From assembly GCF_002250055.1 (NCBI RefSeq), contig NZ_CP018866.1:3870869-3902868 (forward strand): a DNA stretch of 32,000 nucleotides, read 5' to 3'. Positions 11,834-19,596 of this stretch are shown here, in pieces. This DNA comes from Sutcliffiella cohnii. GTDB lineage: Bacteria > Bacillota > Bacilli > Bacillales > Bacillaceae_I. Each line of letters opens with the position of its first letter. Positions within the stretch are counted from its first letter, which is position 1. Both the position numbers and the translations under genes were made by a program. The notes under the pieces are model-generated. The model was given only the letters and a program-made list of their open reading frames with translations, had not been told where the DNA came from and searched no databases.

Positions 11834-12503
11834 AATCCCCCTTCACTTCGTCTCTAGCAATTTTTCCGTATTCTATTGCAATAACACGTCTTTTCATCGT
11901 GTTAACAATCTCTTTGTTGTGTGTTGCCATCACAATCGTCGTGCCTCGTTCATTAATTTCTTCGAACAACTTCATAATTTCCCATGAAGTATCAGGATCT
12001 AAATTCCCGGTAGGTTCATCGGCAATCATTACTTTCGGGTTATTAACGATAGATCGCGCGATAGATACACGCTGCTGTTCTCCACCTGAAAGTTCATTTG
12101 GAAAGGCTCTCGCTTTATGCTTTAGCTTTACTAAATCTAGCACTTCCATGACACGTTTTTTTATACTTTTTGGCGTTTCTTCAATAACTTCTAGCGCAAA
12201 TGCTACATTTTCATAAACTGTTAGTTGTGGTAACAGTTTAAAATCTTGGAACACGACGCCTATTTTTCTACGTAATAATGGAACGTGGCGCTCTTTAAGC
12301 TTAGATAAATCGATTCCGTCAATAATAATGGAACCGCTTGTCGGCTTTTCTTCGCGGTACATCATTTTAATAAATGTTGATTTCCCTGCACCACTAGGTC
12401 CTACGACGTAAGCAAATTCGCCTGCTTTAAATGTTATATCTATACCATTAACTGCTTGTACACCATTTGAATATTTTTTAAATACATTATGCATTTCAAT
12501 CAT
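11817..12503 (-). CDS. ftsE: Cell-division ABC transporter ATP-binding protein FtsE
   Basis: 228 aa with Walker A GPSGAGKST, signature LSGGEQQR and Walker B VMIADEPTGNLD. Length and context are those of FtsE. Confidence 0.95.
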   Translation of the reverse strand: MIEMHNVFKKYSNGVQAVNGIDITFKAGEFAYVVGPSGAGKSTFIKMMYREEKPTSGSIIIDGIDLSKLKERHVPLLRRKIGVVFQDFKLLPQLTVYENVAFALEVIEETPKSIKKRVMEVLDLVKLKHKARAFPNELSGGEQQRVSIARSIVNNPKVMIADEPTGNLDPDTSWEIMKLFEEINERGTTIVMATHNKEIVNTMKRRVIAIEYGKIARDEVKGDYGYEA

Positions 12504-12534
12504 GTAATCACCTTTTTAGTAGAAAATGTATTTT

Positions 12535-12578
12535 CTCTATATCAATCCATTGTCTTCTCTATATTAATCCATTGTCTT
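12535..12578. repeat. Tandem 22-bp duplication upstream of ftsE
   Basis: CTCTATATCAATCCATTGTCTT (12535-12556) is immediately repeated as CTCTATATTAATCCATTGTCTT (12557-12578), with one mismatch. It lies 32-75 nt upstream of the ftsE start codon. Confidence 0.8.
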
Positions 12579-12902
12579 AAACGGCAAGTATCCTCAATCT
12601 CAAAATTGTTCAGACTCATTATAACATCATATTCCGACAAAAAGAGCATTATTTATATTACATTTTCTTTTCAATTTAAAACGATTATTGGGAATATAGG
12701 TTTATTTTGTCATATTTCATCTTAATTTGGTAGAGGTAGAAAAAAATAATAGTTTTGTTGTGGGGGAAGTTTGAAATTTTTGTGTTTATTTTGATAGTAG
12801 CTGTGGGATCTTGCTTTTTTTCGTGGGGATGCTTTGACGTGAATGGACTTTGGATTGTGCTACCGGGGTCCTATTATAGGCTAAAGGAACTGTGGTATGC
12901 AT

Positions 12903-13238
12903 CAACTGAGCTACTTTTTCGGCCAACTGAGCTACTTTTTCGGCCAACTGAACGGGCTTTTACGCCAGCTGGGCTGCTTTTTCGGCCATCTGAACGGTTT
13001 TTTGCGCCAACTGATTCACTTTTTCGGCCAACTGAATGGACTTTTGCGCCAACTGAGCTACTTTTTCGGCCAACTGAACGAGCTTTTGCGCCAGCTGGGC
13101 TGCTTTTTCGGCCAACTGAACGGACTTTTGCGCCAACCGGGTTACTTTTTCGGCCAACTGAACGGACTTTTGCGCCAACCGGGTTACTTTTTCGGCCATC
13201 TGAACGGGTTTTTGCGCCAACCGTACGGACTTTTGTGC
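12903..13238. repeat. 21-bp-period tandem array 1 (16 units)
   Basis: There are 16 contiguous 21-bp units (336 bp). They tend to alternate ...CTTTTTCGGC and ...CTTTTGCGC endings, for example CAACTGAGCTACTTTTTCGGC and CAACTGAACGGACTTTTGCGC, giving a loose 42-bp doublet. The 5-6 nt between the conserved ends vary. Three overlapping ORFs on both strands are open across the array. Confidence 0.95.
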
Positions 13239-13290
13239 CAACTCATGTTTCAAAGCTTGTTGGCTCAGAATCATTACTACTAGTCTGGAC

Positions 13291-13329
13291 AAAAAAAGGT
13301 CCAAAAAGTTAATTTCTACTTTTTGGACC
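13291..13329 (-). terminator. Rho-independent terminator after the vpr-like gene
   Basis: A perfect 12-bp stem pairs GGTCCAAAAAGT (13298-13309) with ACTTTTTGGACC (13318-13329) around an 8-nt loop. An A7 run at 13291-13297 gives U7 on the minus strand. Confidence 0.85.
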
Positions 13330-13336
13330 ATTACTA

Positions 13337-15772
13337 TTATTCGATTGTTAATACATCTGCTGCTGCGACAGCACGTTCACCGTTGCCTTTTTTCGCATAG
13401 ATTGCCACGCGGTAGTTACCAGCAGGTAGTACGGTACCATCTACTAATGTACCATCCCACACATGCTCAGCATATCCAGCAGGAAGGTTAGAATCGTAAA
13501 GTGCATCTCCAACATAAGAACCTAATCCACCAGTTGCTGTTGCAGAGTAGATCCACACTTCGTACTCATCTGCGCCACCTGGTAAGTAAGACCAAATGTC
13601 GAATGTGTTGTTTCCTAAGCTATCGAACCCTAAAGAAGTTACTCGTGGGAAGTCTGGTTCACCTACGAATAGAATTGTAGGAACTTCTACTACTGTTTCA
13701 CCTTCTGTAACTGTTAAGTAGCCTTCATAATAGCCGGAGTCTAATTTAGAAGCATCTACTGTTACATTTACATTTACTTTTTGTGTTTTACCTGGGTTTA
13801 CTCTTGTATTGTTACTTGTTGTAACTTTTACATGTTTGCCTACTTCGTTTTTGAATGTGAATTCGACGTTGTAACGTTTAGCTTCATTAGAAAGGTTTTG
13901 GATTTCGAAATGTTGACGTGCACTTTCTTTTCCTTTTGCCTTTTCAAATACTCCGAAAGAATAGCTTCCAGGGTTAACTAATGTTTCTGCATTGATTGCA
14001 TCTAGTACACGGATACTACCAGCACCTTGTGTATTGTGTGGATAGCTTTCCCCAGTTGCTGGATTAATTAGATCTTCTGCAGTATTCATTAACGCAGATT
14101 TTACTTGGAATACATCCCAATCAGGATTAGCTTGTAATACTAATGCCGCTGCTCCTGCTACGTGTGGACTTGCCATTGAAGTACCTTGCTTTGCTCCGTA
14201 TCCGTATGGATTTGATGGATCAAATGTTGGTACTGTACTTACGATTGCAACACCAGGTGCTGAAACGTCAGGCTTGATCATCCAAGTATCCATTACTGGA
14301 CCACGAGATGAGAAGTCTGCTACTGTTTCACCTACTTGGTGAGAAAATGCAATGTTAAAGCTTACTGTTACGTCATTAACTTTTGCTTTTAACGCTTCCC
14401 CATCTGCTTGGTTAAGCATAATTGTTGGAACGTCCATTCCTGGAATTAGTGGCATATCACCAGCTACGTTATTGTAAAGAACTGCACCAACTGCGCCAGC
14501 TTTTTTAGCTTCTGTCGCTTTGTCCACGAATGGGATACCTGCTCCACGGCTAATTAATGCGATTTTACCTTCTAATTCTTTACCTGCAAACTCTGCTGGA
14601 GAACCAAAGCCTACATCTACTAAATCAAAGTTTTGTCCATTTAAAGCCTTTAACGCATCTTCAGATGGGAATCCTTGAACTGCTGAGGAAGCGTAAGATA
14701 CTCCGTCAGAAGAAGTTGTTGTTGCTGTAAATACGTTGTACGGTAATTGAGTTGCACCAACAGAGATAGCATCGCGAGAAGTTCCAGGAGAACCTACTGT
14801 CCAGTTGTTTGGACCGCTATTTCCGTTAGAAGTTACTGCTACTACACCTTCTGCCATTGCCCAATCTAATGCGATAGACGTTGCAAAGTCAGGGCTGTTT
14901 AACGTGTTACCTAAAGATAGGTTCATAACATCAGCGCCATCTTGAACTGCGCGCTCAATACCTGCGATAACGTTAGCTGTCGTACCGCTACCACCAGGTC
15001 CTAAAACACGGTATGCTAAAAGCGTCGCTTCTGGAGCTACCCCTTTAATTAGACCGTTCGCTGCTACTGTACCTGCAACGTGTGTACCGTGAGTTGTTTC
15101 TGCACCACGCGGATCATTTTTAGGTGTTTCTTGTGGATCTTCGTCGTTATCTACGAAATCATATCCTTTGTAAGCACCAAATTGTCCAGCTAAATCTGGG
15201 TGTGTGTAATCTACACCAGTATCGATAACTGCTACTGTTACACCTTCACCAGTGAAACCTGCATCCCAAGCTTCGTTAGAACCGATAAATGGAGCGGAAT
15301 CTAACATTTCTGGGCTATAAGATTCTTCTACAACATATTCAGTGGAAGAATCTACTGTATATGTAACGTTCGGATAAACTGCTTTTACGCCAGGAGTTGC
15401 TAGTAAGCTAGGAATCTCGTTTTGTGGAACTTCCACAGCGAAACCAGAAAATACGTAATCATATTCACGTTCTACTTTTGAAGTAGAAACACGTTTCCCA
15501 ACTTCATTTTTTACTTGGTTACGAACATTATTCAAGTTTTTCTTCGTTTGTGCTTTTCCTTTATGCTTTGCTTCGACAAGAGACTCTTCTTCTAGTTCGA
15601 CAATAACTGTTGTCGGCTTCGAGCTAGATAAATCATACTCGCCGTATAGAGTTGCTAATTCTTCTACTTTAGTTACTTTCCCTTGGTTCACTTGTGCACC
15701 AGCAGAAAAAGAACTAAACACTAATAGGATGGCACTAACAATCATTAGTGCTGTAACCAGTTTGTTACGCAA
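13337..15772 (-). CDS. vpr: Secreted S8 subtilisin-family serine protease with PA-domain insertion, Vpr-like
   Basis: It has a signal peptide, an I9-like propeptide and the catalytic motifs VIDTGVDYTHPDL (Asp), HGTHVAGTVAANG (His) and GTSMASPHVAGAAAL (Ser). A PA-type insertion lies between His and Ser. Length and blocks are very close to B. subtilis Vpr. The start is either TTG at 15772 (GGGGAG 8 nt upstream) or GTG at 15781. Confidence 0.85.
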   Translation of the reverse strand: MRNKLVTALMIVSAILLVFSSFSAGAQVNQGKVTKVEELATLYGEYDLSSSKPTTVIVELEEESLVEAKHKGKAQTKKNLNNVRNQVKNEVGKRVSTSKVEREYDYVFSGFAVEVPQNEIPSLLATPGVKAVYPNVTYTVDSSTEYVVEESYSPEMLDSAPFIGSNEAWDAGFTGEGVTVAVIDTGVDYTHPDLAGQFGAYKGYDFVDNDEDPQETPKNDPRGAETTHGTHVAGTVAANGLIKGVAPEATLLAYRVLGPGGSGTTANVIAGIERAVQDGADVMNLSLGNTLNSPDFATSIALDWAMAEGVVAVTSNGNSGPNNWTVGSPGTSRDAISVGATQLPYNVFTATTTSSDGVSYASSAVQGFPSEDALKALNGQNFDLVDVGFGSPAEFAGKELEGKIALISRGAGIPFVDKATEAKKAGAVGAVLYNNVAGDMPLIPGMDVPTIMLNQADGEALKAKVNDVTVSFNIAFSHQVGETVADFSSRGPVMDTWMIKPDVSAPGVAIVSTVPTFDPSNPYGYGAKQGTSMASPHVAGAAALVLQANPDWDVFQVKSALMNTAEDLINPATGESYPHNTQGAGSIRVLDAINAETLVNPGSYSFGVFEKAKGKESARQHFEIQNLSNEAKRYNVEFTFKNEVGKHVKVTTSNNTRVNPGKTQKVNVNVTVDASKLDSGYYEGYLTVTEGETVVEVPTILFVGEPDFPRVTSLGFDSLGNNTFDIWSYLPGGADEYEVWIYSATATGGLGSYVGDALYDSNLPAGYAEHVWDGTLVDGTVLPAGNYRVAIYAKKGNGERAVAAADVLTIE

Positions 15773-16038
15773 TGGACCCACTCCCCTTTTTAACTATTCT
15801 TACAGCTAACGTCGCAACATTAGACTGCAATCGACACTAATTTCCTACAATTATTTCGGAAACTAAAATAAATTATATTTTTAATTATTTAAATATTCAA
15901 TAGAGTTTGAAATAAACAGGATGAAAGTCCAAGCTGTTTTTTGAAAAATAGATATTGAGGCATGATTTTTAATTTCGAAGGTTAGTGCTAATTACTTATG
16001 TTTTGAAAAAAGACGAGGGGGAAACTACATAGAAATAG

Positions 16039-16071
16039 AAAAAACTCCCCAATGATTTTTCACTGAGAAGT
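16039..16071 (-). terminator. Rho-independent terminator after cccB
   Basis: A 12-bp stem with three G-U pairs joins 16044-16055 to 16060-16071 around a 4-nt loop. On the minus strand it is followed by U5. Confidence 0.65.
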
Positions 16072-16086
16072 TTTGTACTAGGACTT

Positions 16087-16425
16087 TTATTTATGTTCTG
16101 CTAACCATGCAGCAACAGTAGATGCTTCTTCACCTTTTAAGAAGCCACCACGCATATTACCTTGTCCATTTAAAATAATGTCTTCAATTTCTTCTTTAGA
16201 ATATTTATTTCCTACTTGCGATAGTTGTGGTCCGAAGCCACCTTCTAAATTACCACCGTGACAGCTTTGACAGCTTTGTTGATATAGCTTTTCAGCATCT
16301 GCACTGACAGCATCGCCTGTTGCATCTTGTGCAGGAGCTTCCGTTGCATTATCTCCTCCACCACCACAAGCACCAAGGACAATGAGAGTACTAACGAAAA
16401 CGAATGTTAATAACCATTTTTTCAA
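16087..16425 (-). CDS. cccB: Membrane-anchored (lipoprotein) cytochrome c-551
   Basis: It has a CQSCHG haem-binding motif and a lipobox (LGAC) after a short hydrophobic N-terminus. The preferred TTG start at 16425 lies 7 nt after AAGGGGGA and gives 112 aa. The track ORF extends to 16473. Confidence 0.85.
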   Translation of the reverse strand: MKKWLLTFVFVSTLIVLGACGGGGDNATEAPAQDATGDAVSADAEKLYQQSCQSCHGGNLEGGFGPQLSQVGNKYSKEEIEDIILNGQGNMRGGFLKGEEASTVAAWLAEHK

Positions 16426-16520
16426 GGTAAAATCCCCCTTAGCAATAATTTTGTAGTTAAAAAGGATGCGCATTCCTTATACTTAAAAAATACCACATTC
16501 CATTGGTTATTATAACCATC

Positions 16521-17393
16521 CTACTCCCGTTTAAACCCTTCTCCTAACACTTCTGAAGCATTCATAACGACGACAAAAGCAGACGCATCAATGCTTTGCA
16601 CCACTTGTTTCAACTTTGTGAATTCTTGCTGATTTACTACACACATAAGCACCGGCTTTTCATTTAAAGTGTATCCACCATGGGCTGTTAGCTTTGTCAC
16701 ACCGCGATCTAATTTTGTTAGTATTGCTTCACGAACTTCCGCTTCTTTTTCGGAAATGATAATAATTGTCTTCGAATATCCGATACCGACTTGAACCATA
16801 TCAATTGTTTTACTTGTTACGTATAGAGATAAAAGCGCGTATAAACCAAGTTCAATATCAAAAACAATTGCAGCAGAAATTACAATTAAACCGTCGATAA
16901 TGGCAACGCACGTCCCTAGAGATAGCCCGGTATATTTATGTATAATTTGCGCTGCTAAGTCCGTTCCTCCTGTAGACGCTCTTCCTCTAAACACAAGCCC
17001 AAGCCCAATTCCGACCCCAATTCCTCCGAAAAGACTTGCAAGTAACGGATCCATCGTCGCAGGTTGAATATCTCTCGTCCATAAAACCATTAATGGAAGT
17101 GTTACCGTTCCTACTAACGTTTTTAATCCAAACTGACGTCCTAGTAAAACGACTCCTGCAAAAAATAGCGGAATATTAAAAGATAATTGAACGATACCAG
17201 GTTCCCAGCCTAACACTGCATTTAATATAGTACTAATTCCACTAACTCCACCCGATGCTACACGGTTAGGAAGTAAAAATAAATTAAAAGCTAACGCGAC
17301 AAAAGCCGCTCCGATAATAACGTACCCATATTCTTTCGCCCTTTGCATAAATGGGCTGTCTACTTTTCGATCATTCTTTTTACGTTTGCTCAA
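16521..17393 (-). CDS. yvjA: YitT-family membrane protein with C-terminal DUF2179 domain (YvjA-like)
   Basis: It has multiple transmembrane helices with GGVSGI and GGTDL motifs, and a soluble C-terminal domain. The track ORF starts with TTG at 17408, but that codon is part of the GGAGGGAG ribosome-binding site. The preferred start is TTG at 17393. The position between cccB and prfB matches B. subtilis yvjA. Confidence 0.85.
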   Translation of the reverse strand: MSKRKKNDRKVDSPFMQRAKEYGYVIIGAAFVALAFNLFLLPNRVASGGVSGISTILNAVLGWEPGIVQLSFNIPLFFAGVVLLGRQFGLKTLVGTVTLPLMVLWTRDIQPATMDPLLASLFGGIGVGIGLGLVFRGRASTGGTDLAAQIIHKYTGLSLGTCVAIIDGLIVISAAIVFDIELGLYALLSLYVTSKTIDMVQVGIGYSKTIIIISEKEAEVREAILTKLDRGVTKLTAHGGYTLNEKPVLMCVVNQQEFTKLKQVVQSIDASAFVVVMNASEVLGEGFKRE

Positions 17394-17565
17394 AGATGCT
17401 CCCTCCAACTACGCTAACATATAAACCACAAACAGAAAGAGTATAGCACGCACTTTTTTCGATGTAAACGATGCTCGAATAACGTGTTAAAGCGCTAAAA
17501 GTTAGTTTGTGGTAAGAGGGGGAATTTCATGCATGGGTAGAGGGGGAGGGTGGTGGGTTTTTACG

Positions 17566-18425
17566 GAAACCAGGCTTCGTTTTGTGTAGACCGAATGGTT
17601 TTTGTGCCAACTGAGTTCGGCTTTGTGCCAACCGGATTCGCTTTTGCGTCAATCGAGATCACTTTTGCGCCAATCGAGCTGGCTTTTGTGCCAACCGGAT
17701 TCGCTTTTGTGCCAACTGAGTTCATTTTTGCGCCAATCGAGCTGGCTTTTGTGCCAACCGGATTCGCTTTTGTGCCAACCGAGTTCACTTTTGCGTCAAT
17801 CGAGCTGGCTTTCGTGCCAACCGGATTCGCTTTTGTGCCAACCGAGTTCGGCTTTGTGCCAACCGGATTCGCTTTCACGCCAACTACAACACGGTTTCGG
17901 CCAAACTGACTTCCTTTCACGCCAACTGCAACGCGGTTTCGGCCAAACCGACTTCCTTTCACGCCAACTGCAACACGGTTTCGGCCAACTCGACTTCCTT
18001 TCACGCCAACTACAACGTGTTTTCGGCCAAACTGACTTCCTTTCACGCCAACTGCAACGCGGTTTCGGCCAACTCGACTTCCTTTCACGCCAACTACAAC
18101 ACGGTTTCGGCCAAACTGACTTCCTTTCACGCCAACTGCAACGCGGTTTCGGCCAAACCGACTTCCTTTCACGCCAACTGCAACGCGGTTTCGGCCAAAC
18201 CGACTTCCTTTCACGCCAACTACAACGTGTTTTCGGCCAACTCGACTTCCTTTCACGCCAACTGCAACGCGGTTTCGGCCAAACCGACTTCCTTTCACGC
18301 CAACTGCAACACTATTTCAGCCAACCGAACTCACTTATTGATGCACTTGCGGATTTAATTGACGCACACGGCCAATTTTTTGACGCAGCTGAAAAATTAA
18401 TTGACGCACTTGACGTTATTTTTAA
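17566..18425. repeat. 21-bp-period tandem array 2 (39 in-phase units plus ~2 degenerate leading units; three sequence families)
   Basis: 17607-18425 is exactly 39 x 21 bp with no phase slip. Family A (17607-17879) has 13 units such as CCAACCGGATTCGCTTTTGTG, with a 63-bp super-repeat. Family B (17880-18299) has ten 42-bp doublets. Family C (18300-18425) has six diverged units ending ...TTGA|CGCA. Four overlapping ORFs on both strands run through it. Confidence 0.95.
17880..18299. repeat. Family-B sub-array: ten near-identical 42-bp doublets
   Basis: The unit is CCAACT(A/G)CAAC(AC/GC/GT)G(G/T)TTTCGG CCAA(ACT/ACC/CTC)GACTTCCTTTCACG. All differences between copies fall at these few positions. 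Four of the ten copies contain the perfect palindromic hairpin CGGTTTCGGCCAAACCG. Confidence 0.95.
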
Positions 18426-18450
18426 CCCGCTAGCTTTCTTCCTTGCTGGC

Positions 18451-18485
18451 AAAAACAAAACCCCTGCCGCGTTGCACGACAAGGG
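18451..18485 (-). terminator. Rho-independent terminator after prfB
   Basis: On the minus strand the hairpin CCCTTGTCG...CGGCAGGGG (plus coordinates 18461-18485, includes G-U pairs) is followed by TTTTGTTTTT (18451-18460). It begins 12 nt after the stop codon. Confidence 0.7.
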
Positions 18486-18497
18486 TAGGAATGACAA

Positions 18498-19596
18498 TTA
18501 AATTTTTGAACGTAAATATGCATCAATGAACGGATCGAGTTCGCCGTCCATGACTGATTGTGTGTTTCCGATTTCTGTGTTGGTACGGTGATCTTTTACA
18601 AGGGAATAAGGGTGGAAAACATAGGAACGAATTTGACTTCCCCAGCCAATGTCTTTTTGTTCGCCACGGATTTCATCTAATTCCGCTTGTTGCTCTTCTA
18701 GTTTACGTTGATAAAGTTTTGCTTGGAGCATTTTCATCGCACGTTCACGGTTTTTAATTTGGGAACGTTCTGTTTGACACGTTACGACTACATTCGTTGG
18801 AATGTGTGTAATACGGACTGCGGAGTCAGTTGTGTTAATATGCTGACCACCTGCTCCACTTGCACGGTACGTATCAATTTTTAAATCTTCCGTGCGGATG
18901 TCGATTTCAATTTCATCATTAAACTCTGGCATTACGTCGCAAGATACGAACGACGTATGACGACGGCCGGATGAGTCAAATGGAGAAATACGTACAAGAC
19001 GGTGCACTCCTTTTTCTGCCTTCAAATACCCGTATGCGTTATGCCCTTTAATTAAAAGAGTTACGCTTTTAATTCCAGCTTCATCACCTGGAAGGTAATC
19101 TAACGTTTCTACTTTGAAACCTTTTTTCTCTGCCCAGCGTGTGTACATACGTAGTAGCATAGAGCCCCAGTCTTGAGATTCCGTTCCACCAGCGCCAGGA
19201 TGCAATTCTAAAATCGCATTATTTTTATCGTAAGGCTCGCTTAATAAAAGCTGTAGTTCAAATTTATTAAACTCACCTGTTAGTTCTTTTACTTCATTTA
19301 CTAGTTCAGCTAGCAGTTCTTCGTCTGGCTCTTCTTTCACTAGCTCATACGTTACATCTAAGTTTTCATAGCTTTCATGAAGTTCATGAAATTGACCAAC
19401 TGAATCTTTTAACGCATTCGCCTCACTAATTACTACTTGGGCTGCGTTTTGATCATCCCAAAAGTTAGGATGACTCATAAGCTCATCTAATTCGGCGACT
19501 CTCTTTTCCTTATGTTCTAAGTCAAAGAGACCCCCTAAAGTCCGCTAAACGTTTAGCCATTTTCTCAAGTTCGTTTCTAATTTCTGCAAGTTCCAT
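18498..19596 (-). CDS. prfB: Peptide chain release factor 2, expressed through a programmed +1 frameshift
   Basis: Frame 0 runs from ATG at 19596 ([24 protein letters not shown]) to an in-frame TGA at 19524-19522. The +1 frame continues [22 protein letters not shown]... into the 326-aa track ORF, which carries SPF and GGQ motifs. Confidence 0.95.
19521..19536 (-). promoter_or_regulatory. prfB: RF2 autoregulatory +1 frameshift site (SD-like AGGGGG, then CTT TGA C)
   Basis: The minus strand reads AGGGGG TCT CTT TGA C. AGGGGG is at plus coordinates 19531-19536 and CTTTGAC at 19521-19527. This is the canonical prfB recoding signal. Confidence 0.9.

Follow-up and report, generated by a model that had tools for sequence, protein, structure and literature searches.

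We find that the gap between prfB and yvjA in Sutcliffiella cohnii is taken up by a tandem array of 39 consecutive 21-bp units (array 2, positions 17600-18418) with zero phase slip, and that this array is probably a non-coding intergenic minisatellite (VNTR), belonging to an S. cohnii-specific family of 21-bp units with at least two arrays in the window, i.e., in the whole 32,000-nucleotide stretch of DNA that we analyzed. The family itself is so far undescribed, and our literature search found no description of such arrays in Bacillaceae or in S. cohnii; the kind of element to which it belongs, the bacterial VNTR, is known.

Organization of the 21-bp arrays

The original prediction described 39 consecutive 21-bp units without phase slip, among them 13 family A units with a 63-bp super-repeat, filling most of a 1.09-kb intergenic gap, and our analysis confirms all of these points. 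The gap spans positions 17409-18497 (1089 bp), and Tandem Repeats Finder (TRF), which had been suggested as a check, returned periods of 21, 42 and 63 with scores of 286-703: period 21 over 17600-17875 (13.1 copies), period 63 over 17600-17849 (4.0 copies, 91% matches), and period 42 over 17858-18328 (11.2 copies, 89% matches, score 703). When the region is laid out in 21-nt rows, the core columns are fixed from 17600 to 18334, and the four TTGAYGCA units at 18335-18418 are also in the 21-bp register, i.e., array 2 consists of head-to-tail tandem copies of a unit in the 10-100-bp range that is typical of a VNTR. The sequence TTTNNNGCCAA is present 34 times in the window, compared to 2.3 ± 1.6 times in shuffles, with all 34 copies on the + strand, all 34 in phase, and all confined to array 2 and a second array (12916-13241). 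Array 2 is not an assembly artefact, since the independent complete genome CP115153.1 also contains these 39 units, with 2 substitutions. In several draft assemblies, contig breaks fall exactly within the arrays.

Three unit families are present in array 2. Family A (17600-17872) contains 13 units of 21 bp, made up of TTTTGYGCCAAYCG and a 7-nt variable part, and its 63-bp super-repeat is evident from the TRF periods of 21 and 63, the row layout and the column profile; this family is also predicted to be the most curved DNA of the window. Family B (17873-18334) contains 22 units that form 11 doublets of 42 bp (TTTCACGCCAACTRCAACRYG / KTTTCGGCCAAMYYGACTTCC; TRF period 42 and row layout), the final (11th) doublet being diverged, and family C (18335-18418; row layout) contains four diverged units that keep the 21-bp register and have TTGA(C/T)GCA in place of GCCAA. 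The partition into three families proposed earlier stands, with our recount giving 11 B doublets and four C units rather than 10 doublets and six C units, and the GCCAA core that had been assigned to every unit occurs in families A and B and is missing from all four units of family C. At the left edge of array 2, two degenerate 21-mers (17558-17599) keep the T-tract register in 21-nt rows with a degraded core, as is expected from the edge decay typical of tandem arrays.

The unit sequences had been regarded as unrelated, but our analysis demonstrated that the families are related, with the core TT-N3-GCCAA (TTGGC-N3-AA in gene sense) common to families A and B, and with a minimum spanning tree of the units (54 distinct) connecting the families. 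Columns 2, 3, 7, 9 and 10 are invariant (51 units), and the core block is depleted in changes on the spanning tree (P=2e-5; changes per column 4, 0, 1, 4, 8, 8, 0, 3, 1, 2, 5, 3, 8, 8, 8, 7, 12, 4, 8, 14 and 9). The core is altered in family B (TTGGCGTGAAA) and in family C (TTGACGCA), yet both were amplified.

A sister array that the original prediction missed (array 1, 12895-13251) contains about 16-17 units of the array 2 unit family, with the same core and with a 42/126-bp higher-order repeat (TTTTCGGCCAACTGAACGGRC / TTTTGCGCCAACTGAGCTACT; TRF periods 21, 42 and 126, and row layout). Degenerate units border both arrays. The evidence for a dispersed family in S. cohnii consists of these two arrays, located 4.3 kb apart within the 32-kb window.

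Both arrays start just past an intrinsic terminator and upstream of the promoter region of the next gene, and their neighbours are housekeeping genes (secA, prfB, yvjA, cccB and ftsEX). Directly upstream of array 2, in gene sense, is the prfB terminator (18460-18486, - strand), with a 12-bp stem containing 7 GC pairs and followed by TTTGTTTTTG, and in the equivalent position upstream of array 1 is the terminator of the S8 protease gene (13298-13329, - strand), with a 12-bp stem followed by TTTTTTTG. A scan of positions 12400-18700 for promoters identified a yvjA promoter-like site, TTTACA-17-TATACT with a TG (17440-17468, - strand), as a joint-best match (10/12); in gene sense, about 110 bp separate it from the last recognizable array 2 unit, which precedes it. 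The same scan identified only weak promoter-like matches between array 1 and ftsE, and no promoter-like site within array 1 or array 2.

Variation between strains

The copy number of these arrays varies between strains by whole units. For example, array 1 contains about 24 units in CP115153.1 and 16 in the window; strain L085, which is 94% identical, contains 8 family A units rather than the 13 of the window, and in strain L217 family B is absent, family C is expanded to about 13 units and family A numbers about 10, in 21-bp rows throughout, although L085 and L217 are draft assemblies and their copy numbers are possibly affected by collapse. The comparison with related genomes that had been called for revealed length polymorphism. 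The identity of array 2 between two strains is uninformative on its stability, because it sits within a near-identical 5-kb tract.

The families share a core, the array edges decay, and strains gain and lose entire units as well as entire families. A single ancestral 21-bp array that underwent slippage or unequal exchange in register therefore accounts for the phase lock. The kept register had previously been read as a sign of constraint on the period itself; these three features suffice, and such a constraint is not needed.

Coding potential and RNA structure

The view that array 2 is a stop-poor non-coding repeat rather than a gene holds up, in that the array is flanked by a terminator and a promoter-like site, keeps no frame and no frame ends across strains, and has no protein homologues. 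The coiled-coil-looking sense frame (LA*K) contains a TGA in each family B doublet, the LAQK frame is interrupted by stops in every strain, and there is no conserved start or C-terminus across strains in any frame of the arrays, nor an uninterrupted frame with a start and an RBS that is kept between strains. Changes by codon phase (33/50/34) do not differ significantly (about P=0.1). Searches of the window ORFs against Pfam and NCBIfam found nothing coiled-coil-like, and protein searches (5.8 and 1.8 billion proteins) returned only the species' own spurious ORF and chance low-complexity matches. Individually, the 245-aa sense ORF had no match in the protein database, the LIDAL frame matched only the species' own partial ORF, and the LAEK-frame translation matched only one unrelated high-GC metagenome protein, in a search that missed even ORFs called in CP115153.1 and is unreliable for low-complexity queries. 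An exhaustive search of 1.84 billion representatives returned the species' own fragment and three unrelated low-complexity repeat proteins.

Two ways in which the arrays could nevertheless be tied to a protein were weighed against these results. The arrays could be the relic of a heptad-repeat (coiled-coil) gene, with 21 bp corresponding to seven codons and with the repeats having kept expanding as non-coding DNA after inactivation. The sense frame does give canonical heptads (VAQLAEK, LAQKSIQ, LAEKVAQ) and has only a single stop in array 1, real heptad-repeat coiled-coil genes fill the prfB-yvjA gap in Metabacillus and Thermolongibacillus and have homologues in Anoxybacillus and Geobacillus that are located about 4.5 kb upstream, and metagenomes hold real xxQLAEK-heptad ORFs encoded by ...CAGTTGGCGGAAAA... 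(L108, L148). However, when the N- and C-terminal parts outside the repeats of these gap coiled-coil genes (the L036 and L038 proteins) were used as tblastn queries, neither the window nor any Sutcliffiella locus gave a match. The apparent start of the 123-aa ORF of array 1 falls inside the S8 terminator hairpin, and the sense frame has no third-position excess and a weak excess on its first positions. In addition, the heptad-like reading stems largely from the fixed TTGGC..AA core, and a codon origin is impossible for the analogous arrays whose periods are 20 and 41 bp, so that a relic gene appears improbable. The other proposal is a translated + strand repeat protein, antisense to its neighbours, encoded by a 299-aa ORF (17602-18501) and, in array 1, by a 128-aa ORF (12897-13283), the product of which would have LLRQxxx / FFGQLNG / LIDALxx heptads. 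This frame is stop-free in all complete versions of array 2 (the window, CP115153.1 and L217) and open through array 1 in two strains; a Shine-Dalgarno-like site and an ATG precede it in L217, and AAAGGAA, 8 nt and an ATG are present at the array 1 ORF; its third position is the most variable codon phase (50 changes vs 33 and 34), and its tail is annotated by NCBI as a partial hypothetical protein. One open frame of six is unremarkable, however, because the fixed core would be unable to encode a stop in this frame, and the third-position excess is not significant (about P=0.1). Moreover, the ORF in the window that has a Shine-Dalgarno sequence and an ATG (at 17533) meets a TAG (17587-17589) ahead of array 2, with a stop still earlier in L085; L217 and the window read the C-terminal tail in different frames; the array 1 ORF lacks its ATG and has a broken frame in L085 and L087; the promoter scan found no + strand promoter-like site upstream of array 2; and the search of 1.84 billion representatives returned nothing beyond the species' own fragment and the three unrelated low-complexity proteins noted above. 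Judged from its sequence, translation of the + strand frame is unlikely, and a repeat protein of this kind is a highly improbable account of the arrays.

A functional repeat RNA, transcribed for example via read-through of the prfB terminator and acting as a multi-site sponge or a structured RNA, is hardly credible. Short GCCA/UGGC hairpins do give family A a better fold than its shuffles have (z=-3.2), and STAR elements are expressed in Staphylococcus (PMC5294841). Against this, a search of the whole window against Rfam gave zero matches, family B (z=+1.2) and array 1 (z=+0.5) fold no better than shuffles, and we found neither a conserved stable fold nor one common to the families; the family B hairpin CGGTTTCGGCCAAACCG is disrupted in most doublets; array 2 begins past a strong terminator and lacks its own promoter-like site; and the family make-up varies between strains.

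Predicted curvature and arrays in other Bacillaceae

The non-coding minisatellite that we favour has A/T tracts phased with the 10.5-bp helical repeat, a property that places the arrays in the top ~1% of 3179 windows. There is one T-tract per two helical turns, and the DNA is therefore predicted to be intrinsically bent, strongly so for family A and array 1. In a wedge model, the predicted end-to-end/contour ratio was 0.27-0.47, compared to 0.90 ± 0.09 for the background, shuffling the units 300 times never gave an array as curved, and the optimum was a period of 21; curvature in this model was strong for family A and array 1 and weak for family B (ratio 0.70). As in phased A-tract curved DNA, the spacing of the T3-5 tracts is an exact multiple of 10.5 bp, and the predicted curvature is comparable to that of a phased A6 control. 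The arrays differ in having one tract per two turns rather than one per turn, in that family B has T3 tracts only, and in their length, typical promoter-upstream bends being far shorter than the 0.3-0.9-kb element found here.

Our survey of related loci demonstrated that in about 21 of 71 Bacillaceae loci the prfB-yvjA gap holds unrelated arrays of an 8-14-nt core plus a variable spacer, with periods of 20, 21 or 41 bp and with cores that are usually genome-specific. Across 80 related loci, the periods of non-coding arrays cluster at 20-22, 52-53 and 9-11 bp, with 31 of 52 non-coding arrays having a period of 20-22 bp. Curvature is not consistent in other genera, for example with the arrays of L066, L055, L060 and L032 predicted to be straight. 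The suggested helical-phase constraint on the period may be reflected in the 10.5-bp T-tract phasing and in the period clusters, but is not consistently mirrored in predicted curvature across genera. The 20-21-bp arrays at prfB-yvjA in other Bacillaceae, together with the in-phase T-tracts, make a structural DNA role possible. A metagenome and viral scan for three phased cores returned at least 120 tandem repeats with a 21-bp period that are unrelated to one another and stem from widely different organisms, and is uninformative on the S. cohnii family because, in any tandem array, only 8 bases of the pattern are still required.

These observations bear on a further alternative, which we regard as rather unlikely, that array 2 is an iteron-like protein-binding array in which the core TTGGC-N3-AA is the putative site of a lineage-specific DNA-binding protein. 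A period of two helical turns might, on this doubtful reading, load the copies onto one DNA face between transcription units, and such an array could, tentatively and by analogy with REP/BIME or STAR, nucleate nucleoid organization or insulation; the variable 9-10 nt would then be a neutral spacer, and the genome-specific cores a speculative case of protein/site co-evolution. Consistent with protein binding are the conservation of the core relative to the variable spacer (P=2e-5) in the absence of codon periodicity, the recurrence of core-plus-spacer arrays with unrelated cores in the same interval of other genomes, the frequency of the 20-22-bp period (31 of 52), and the use of the genome's own core by the arrays in 6 of the 7 genomes that carry two or more arrays per 20 kb. 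However, core conservation could also reflect gene conversion and shared ancestry, the core changed in families B and C, which were both amplified nonetheless, and close relatives have no array at all, with a gap of 222 bp. Furthermore, we found no candidate binding protein, and the window contains no replication, partition or recombinase gene; the orientation of the core relative to the genes is inconsistent in L060 (and consistent in Mesobacillus), and L066 contains four arrays with four different cores. An informal comparison of the core by eye with Spo0A, AbrB, CodY, DnaA, LexA and sigma-54 motifs, Chi and parS gave no convincing match.

Comparison with known repeat systems

Close parallels are found among other intergenic direct repeats. 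MIRUs, studied by Supply et al. in 1997 and 2000, are reportedly intergenic head-to-tail tandem repeats of tens of bp, present at several loci per genome and with strain-variable copy number, and are said to have units of 40-100 bp and to be located inside operons, often with short ORFs that overlap the flanking genes. The S. cohnii arrays are likewise head-to-tail and intergenic, with a strain-dependent copy number and with slippage or unequal exchange as in MIRU/VNTR loci, but differ in their 21-bp unit, their post-terminator site, their 42/63/126-bp higher-order structure and the coexistence of several unit families. The cores of STAR elements, according to Cramton et al. (2000), are reportedly separated by ~40 bp of recurring sequence, in contrast to the strict 21-bp head-to-tail unit found here. 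Core/spacer structure is present at two loci in the 32 kb. Our arrays resemble STAR elements in being intergenic direct repeats with a core and a variable spacer, species-specific and strain-variable; they differ in genus and in that STAR arrays are short, whereas array 2 contains 39 units in perfect register. STAR elements are interspersed intergenic direct repeats of unknown function, with a conserved GC-rich core and variable spacers, which are species-specific, vary in their location from one species to another, and grow or shrink from strain to strain in a locus-specific manner (PMC3532100, PMC5294841). Their signature core, T[GAT]TGTTG[GT]GGCCC[CA] (PMC5294841), is missing here, where the units read TTTTGYGCCAAC...

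Other systems share some properties with the arrays. Iterons on plasmids and chromosomes also consist of direct repeats, about 20-22 bp long, that have a conserved core and lie on the same face of the helix; a Rep/initiator gene, DnaA boxes, an AT-rich unwinding element or other origin features were not seen near the arrays, a blastn search of the array against 72,556 plasmids and 50,697 phages gave zero matches, and 39 copies is far above usual iteron sets. The REP/BIME elements of enterobacteria are species-specific and intergenic, at the 3′ ends of transcription units, for which structural and protein-binding roles have been proposed, and REPs are imperfect hairpin-forming palindromes linked to RAYT transposases. 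The arrays are also species-specific, intergenic and at the 3′ ends of transcription units, but they are built from direct repeats that show no conserved dyad symmetry. As in eukaryotic satellite DNA, with its higher-order repeats and its “library” model, variants of the same period coexist, multi-unit blocks are amplified, abundance depends on the lineage, and the edges are the most diverged, although the scale here is hundreds of bp rather than Mb, on a bacterial chromosome and with no link to centromeres or chromatin. A CRISPR array, in which 23-47-bp repeats alternate with unique spacers about as long and cas genes are usually present, was considered and rejected, as the core is about 10 nt, the “spacer” is about 10 nt and recurring, and there are no cas domains in the scanned window ORFs.

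Discussion

The S. cohnii 21-bp arrays look like an ordinary fast-evolving bacterial minisatellite. We propose that all units would derive from one ancestral 21-mer with the core TT-N3-GCCAA, and that in-register slippage at replication or unequal homologous exchange would add and remove whole units, as well as the higher-order blocks of 42, 63 and 126 bp. Variants A, B and C could then grow, shrink or vanish by strain, with the 21-bp phase inherited automatically, and the edges of the arrays, which would be the least homogenized, would decay. An array of this kind would yield neither a protein nor a structured RNA, and would occupy a transcriptionally quiet stretch that begins after an intrinsic terminator and ends before the promoter of the following gene.

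If these arrays have a function, it would most likely be that of a structural spacer between transcription units, acting as predicted curved DNA or as a one-face platform for a nucleoid protein. Set against purely neutral turnover, the conservation of the core above uniform drift and the genome-specific cores common to loci in other genera are sequence features that hint at sequence-specific recognition. A broader proposal, to which we attach a low probability, is that many Bacillaceae maintain, at the boundaries of their operons, non-coding arrays in which the period rather than the sequence is under constraint, with periods of about two helical turns (20-21 bp, and 41-42-bp doublets) and possibly five (52-53 bp), with each genome using its own short core at its various loci, and with the prfB-yvjA gap as a recurrent site. 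Such arrays might serve as helically phased platforms, either as curved DNA or by loading a DNA-binding or nucleoid protein specific to the lineage onto one face, with a function like that of REP/BIME or STAR but in a tandem, period-locked form.

The arrays are a clean bacterial case of satellite-style evolution, with one period, several families, block amplification and abundances that are swapped between strains. The array 2 family provides a ready VNTR marker for Sutcliffiella cohnii, and the arrays explain contig breaks and are a source of spurious “hypothetical proteins” in annotations. If the wider Bacillaceae pattern holds, i.e., a recurrent gap, genome-specific cores and near-whole-turn periods, these arrays would represent an undescribed structural DNA element at the boundaries of transcription units.

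Results

Tandem Repeats Finder bears out the array in the prfB-yvjA gap (array 2), reporting period 21 at 17600-17875 (13.1 copies; this block also has period 63, 4.0 copies, 91% matches) and period 42 at 17858-18328 (11.2 copies, score 703). In 21-nt rows, T3-4-N2-3-GCCAA keeps its column from 17600 to 18334, in agreement with the absence of phase slip in the original prediction; four more units, TTGA(C/T)GCA, hold the register at 18335-18418, and two decayed units lie ahead of the array at 17558-17599. The predicted total of 39 units stands, with the split by family revised to 13 A, 22 B and 4 C units, the B units forming 11 doublets of which the last is diverged. Shuffles yield 2.3 +/- 1.6 matches to the motif TTTNNNGCCAA; the window has 34, all of them on the + strand, in phase and confined to array 2 or a second array (12916-13241). 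This second array (array 1, 12895-13251), absent from the original prediction, is built from the same 21-bp unit family with 42/126-bp higher-order structure, and sits in the interval that separates the S8 protease terminator from ftsE. Four B units contain a + strand hairpin, CGGTTTCGGCCAAACCG (17934-17950, 18144-18160, 18186-18202 and 18270-18286), flagged as terminator-like by a scan; it is probably incidental, since it is disrupted in the remaining B doublets.

All genes in the window are on the minus strand, in the order flaG-fliD-fliS, EAL-PAS protein, hpf, DoxX protein, secA, prfB, array 2, yvjA (YitT family), cccB, S8 protease, array 1, ftsE, ftsX, M23 peptidase, ctpB and PDZ protein, with a release factor 3 gene past the last, close to the window's low end; no replication, partition or mobile-element genes were seen among them. 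Read on the gene strand, both arrays start directly past an intrinsic terminator, that of prfB (18486..18460, minus) for array 2 and that of the S8 protease gene (13329..13298, minus) for array 1. A promoter-like site for yvjA (17468..17440, minus) lies ~110 bp past the end of array 2, the stretch from array 1 to ftsE has weak promoter-like matches only, and the promoter scan found no such sites inside either array. The block also contains the canonical prfB +1 programmed frameshift site AGGGGGTCTCTTTGAC (19521-19536, minus strand; Shine-Dalgarno-like AGGGGG, then CTT TGA C), because of which the prfB ORF is listed as two pieces. A 22-nt sequence, GACAATGGATTRATATAGAGAA, is present twice in tandem (12533-12578, minus strand; TRF score 85), ~30-75 nt upstream of the ftsE start codon and just ahead of the ribosome-binding site, and may be a regulatory site or leader element.

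Relative to the Sutcliffiella cohnii window, the draft GCA_001591425.1 (100% identity) has contig ends within array 2, and the complete CP115153.1 (97-98% identity) has the same 39 units with 2 substitutions. This sameness is uninformative on stability because 13500-18500 is near-identical overall; array 1 has 16 units in the window and ~24 in CP115153.1. Between the two, the 13500-18500 tract (yvjA through the S8 protease, with array 2) shows ~3 differences, secA differs by 2-7%, and divergence in the tract flanks (secA/prfB region and S8 3' end) is 2-12% per 250 bp; from these sequences it looks like a segment recently shared or recombined. Locus L085 (94% identity) has 8 family A units rather than 13 and an out-of-frame join in array 1. 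Locus L217 (GCA_054053245.1), with a YvjA protein identical to the window's, lacks family B and carries ~13 C units as 42-bp doublets and ~10 A units, all in 21-bp rows, in a gap of ~730 bp compared with 1089 in the window. In S. cohnii and relatives, assemblies from short reads are broken inside both arrays (contig ends in L081/L086, L082, L083, L085, L087, L088 and L221), and gene callers place conflicting "hypothetical proteins" on both array strands; the + strand ORF tail is "hypothetical protein, partial [Sutcliffiella cohnii]" at NCBI.

Columns 2, 3, 7, 9 and 10 of the unit are invariant across 51 units. A minimum spanning tree linking 54 distinct units, which come from four assemblies, gives per-column change counts (4, 0, 1, 4, 8, 8, 0, 3, 1, 2, 5, 3, 8, 8, 8, 7, 12, 4, 8, 14, 9) that are over-dispersed (P=1e-4), with fewer changes than expected in the 10-column core block (P=2e-5). 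Judged by their sequences, families A, B and C are related. Units at the array edges are decayed, 42-, 63- and 126-bp higher-order repeats are amplified in the interior, and the family amplified differs from strain to strain. This points to satellite-like evolution by in-register slippage or unequal exchange, with the 21-bp phase inherited by descent. The phase lock had been read as a sign of constraint on the period; as the families are related and in-register turnover suffices, this extra constraint is unneeded.

We sampled 80 yvjA loci from other Bacillaceae, 71 with prfB upstream; these loci are phylogenetically non-independent, and the counts are descriptive. In ~21 of the 71, the gap contains a non-coding array with a period of 20, 21 or 41-42 that pairs a conserved core of 8-14 nt with a variable spacer, the cores being mutually unrelated (for example GGCGATTAAAT, AATCGCYGATAAAT, AATCACTACGAAAA, AATCCCGTCACAAG, CGCCCGATAA and, in 22 copies, ATATCGGTCGTCAGG). 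Sutcliffiella itself shows four or five kinds of array in this gap, or a bare 222 bp in which no single-copy progenitor was found. The 52 non-ORF arrays fall mostly at periods of 20-22 bp (31 arrays), 52-53 bp (7) and 9-11 bp (7). Seven genomes have two or more arrays within the 20 kb, and in six of them a core specific to that genome recurs from array to array. Such 20-21-bp arrays with a common core at separate intergenic sites are seen in L024, L027, L031 and L032 (~6.4-6.9 kb and ~16.4 kb), L060 (9636-9716 and 14793-14853), L074 (9810-9853 and 20099-20140) and L076 (5388-5472 and 14834-14855); one example of a core is AATC[AT]CTAC in Mesobacillus. Core orientation tracks flanking gene direction in Mesobacillus but not in L060. 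Non-coding 52-53-bp arrays (~5 helical turns) occur in several genera, some in the prfB-yvjA gap (L013 9503-9765, L072 9477-9697, L036 14656-14820, L049 14761-15086, L007 17563-17836, L018 16-357, L022 20208-20374); the units of L036 and L072 show homology (z=8.5) despite their different loci, and the others are unrelated. Two Cytobacillus species have purine-rich 51-bp-period arrays of 17-18 copies (L021 18431-19301, L025 1-924), one directly upstream of yvjA, which are possibly coding since 51 is a multiple of 3.

Discussion

That the array is a decayed heptad gene is suggested by its sense frame, which reads as coiled-coil-like heptads (VAQLAEK, LAQKSIQ), and by four loci whose gap carries a genuine heptad coiled-coil gene, with homologues upstream of secA in Anoxybacillus and Geobacillus. 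These genes have no homology to the window, and Pfam and NCBIfam searches found nothing coiled-coil-like in the window ORFs, unlike the genuine coiled-coil genes at related loci. Each B doublet puts a TGA into the sense frame (LA*K), array 1 interrupts this frame with stops in all strains, its 245-aa ORF (VGVKGSRFGRNR...) has no homologue in a protein database search, and the ATG of the 123-aa ORF over array 1 falls within the S8 terminator hairpin; we consider this origin improbable. The coiled-coil family itself (~180-220 aa, 7- or 14-residue tandem repeats, conserved C-terminal IKETVxRIE..., no Pfam family above threshold) sits in the gap or ~4.5 kb upstream (L036 9171-9719, L038 9193-9846, L037, L039, L041 5409-6074 and ~15 other Anoxybacillus/Geobacillus loci). 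A translated + strand protein is very improbable. Its frame (LLRQ.., FFGQLNG, LIDAL..) is free of stops in all complete array 2 versions, but one open frame of six is no evidence for a gene, as the fixed core cannot encode a stop there. Neither its start nor its tail is kept between strains: the window's SD+ATG at 17533 meets TAG at 17587-17589, the L085 ORF ends earlier, and L217, alone open from an ATG, has its C-terminal tail in another frame; over array 1, the ORF's ATG is missing in L085 and L087. The codon-phase split of changes (33/50/34) is not significant, and an exhaustive search through 1.84 billion protein representatives returned nothing beyond the fragment from the species itself and three repeat proteins unrelated to it. 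Sense stops, unconserved + strand ends and the lack of outside homologues thus uphold the view of a stop-poor repeat rather than a gene.

A functional RNA is the least credible reading: family A alone folds better than shuffles (z = -3.2, short GCCA/UGGC hairpins), while family B (+1.2) and array 1 (+0.5) do not, the unit families have no common fold, and Rfam gave no match. A binding array, in which the core repeats would form a one-face protein-binding platform, is unlikely, though less so than the preceding readings; curved DNA between transcription units is the other functional alternative. The A/T tracts (at least 4 bases long, or at least 3 in family B) show a 10.5-bp phasing that puts the arrays in the highest ~1% among 3179 windows of 210 bp. 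A wedge model with approximate parameters, reportedly those of Bolshoy et al. from 1991, predicts peak curvature in the 32 kb at family A (ratio of end-to-end to contour length 0.27-0.34) and array 1 (0.41-0.47), against a background of 0.90 +/- 0.09 and 0.36 for a phased A6 control; family B is weaker (0.70). None of 300 shuffled-unit arrays was predicted to be as curved as A or array 1, and predicted curvature is maximal at period 21 and gone by periods 18 and 23. In arrays of other genera it is inconsistent.

Among known systems, STAR elements (PMC3532100, PMC5294841) and MIRU/VNTR minisatellites are the closest in working, and higher-order satellite repeats in the way of evolving. The array lacks the STAR signature, a CRISPR array was ruled out, and nothing around array 2 matches the setting of replicon iterons. 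The literature searched held no description of such arrays. The best-supported reading places array 2 in a non-coding, species-specific minisatellite (VNTR) family that is undescribed and whose phase lock is a product of tandem array growth. A functional reading still has in its favour the conserved core and the 20-21-bp core-plus-spacer arrays that recur in this gap across genera.
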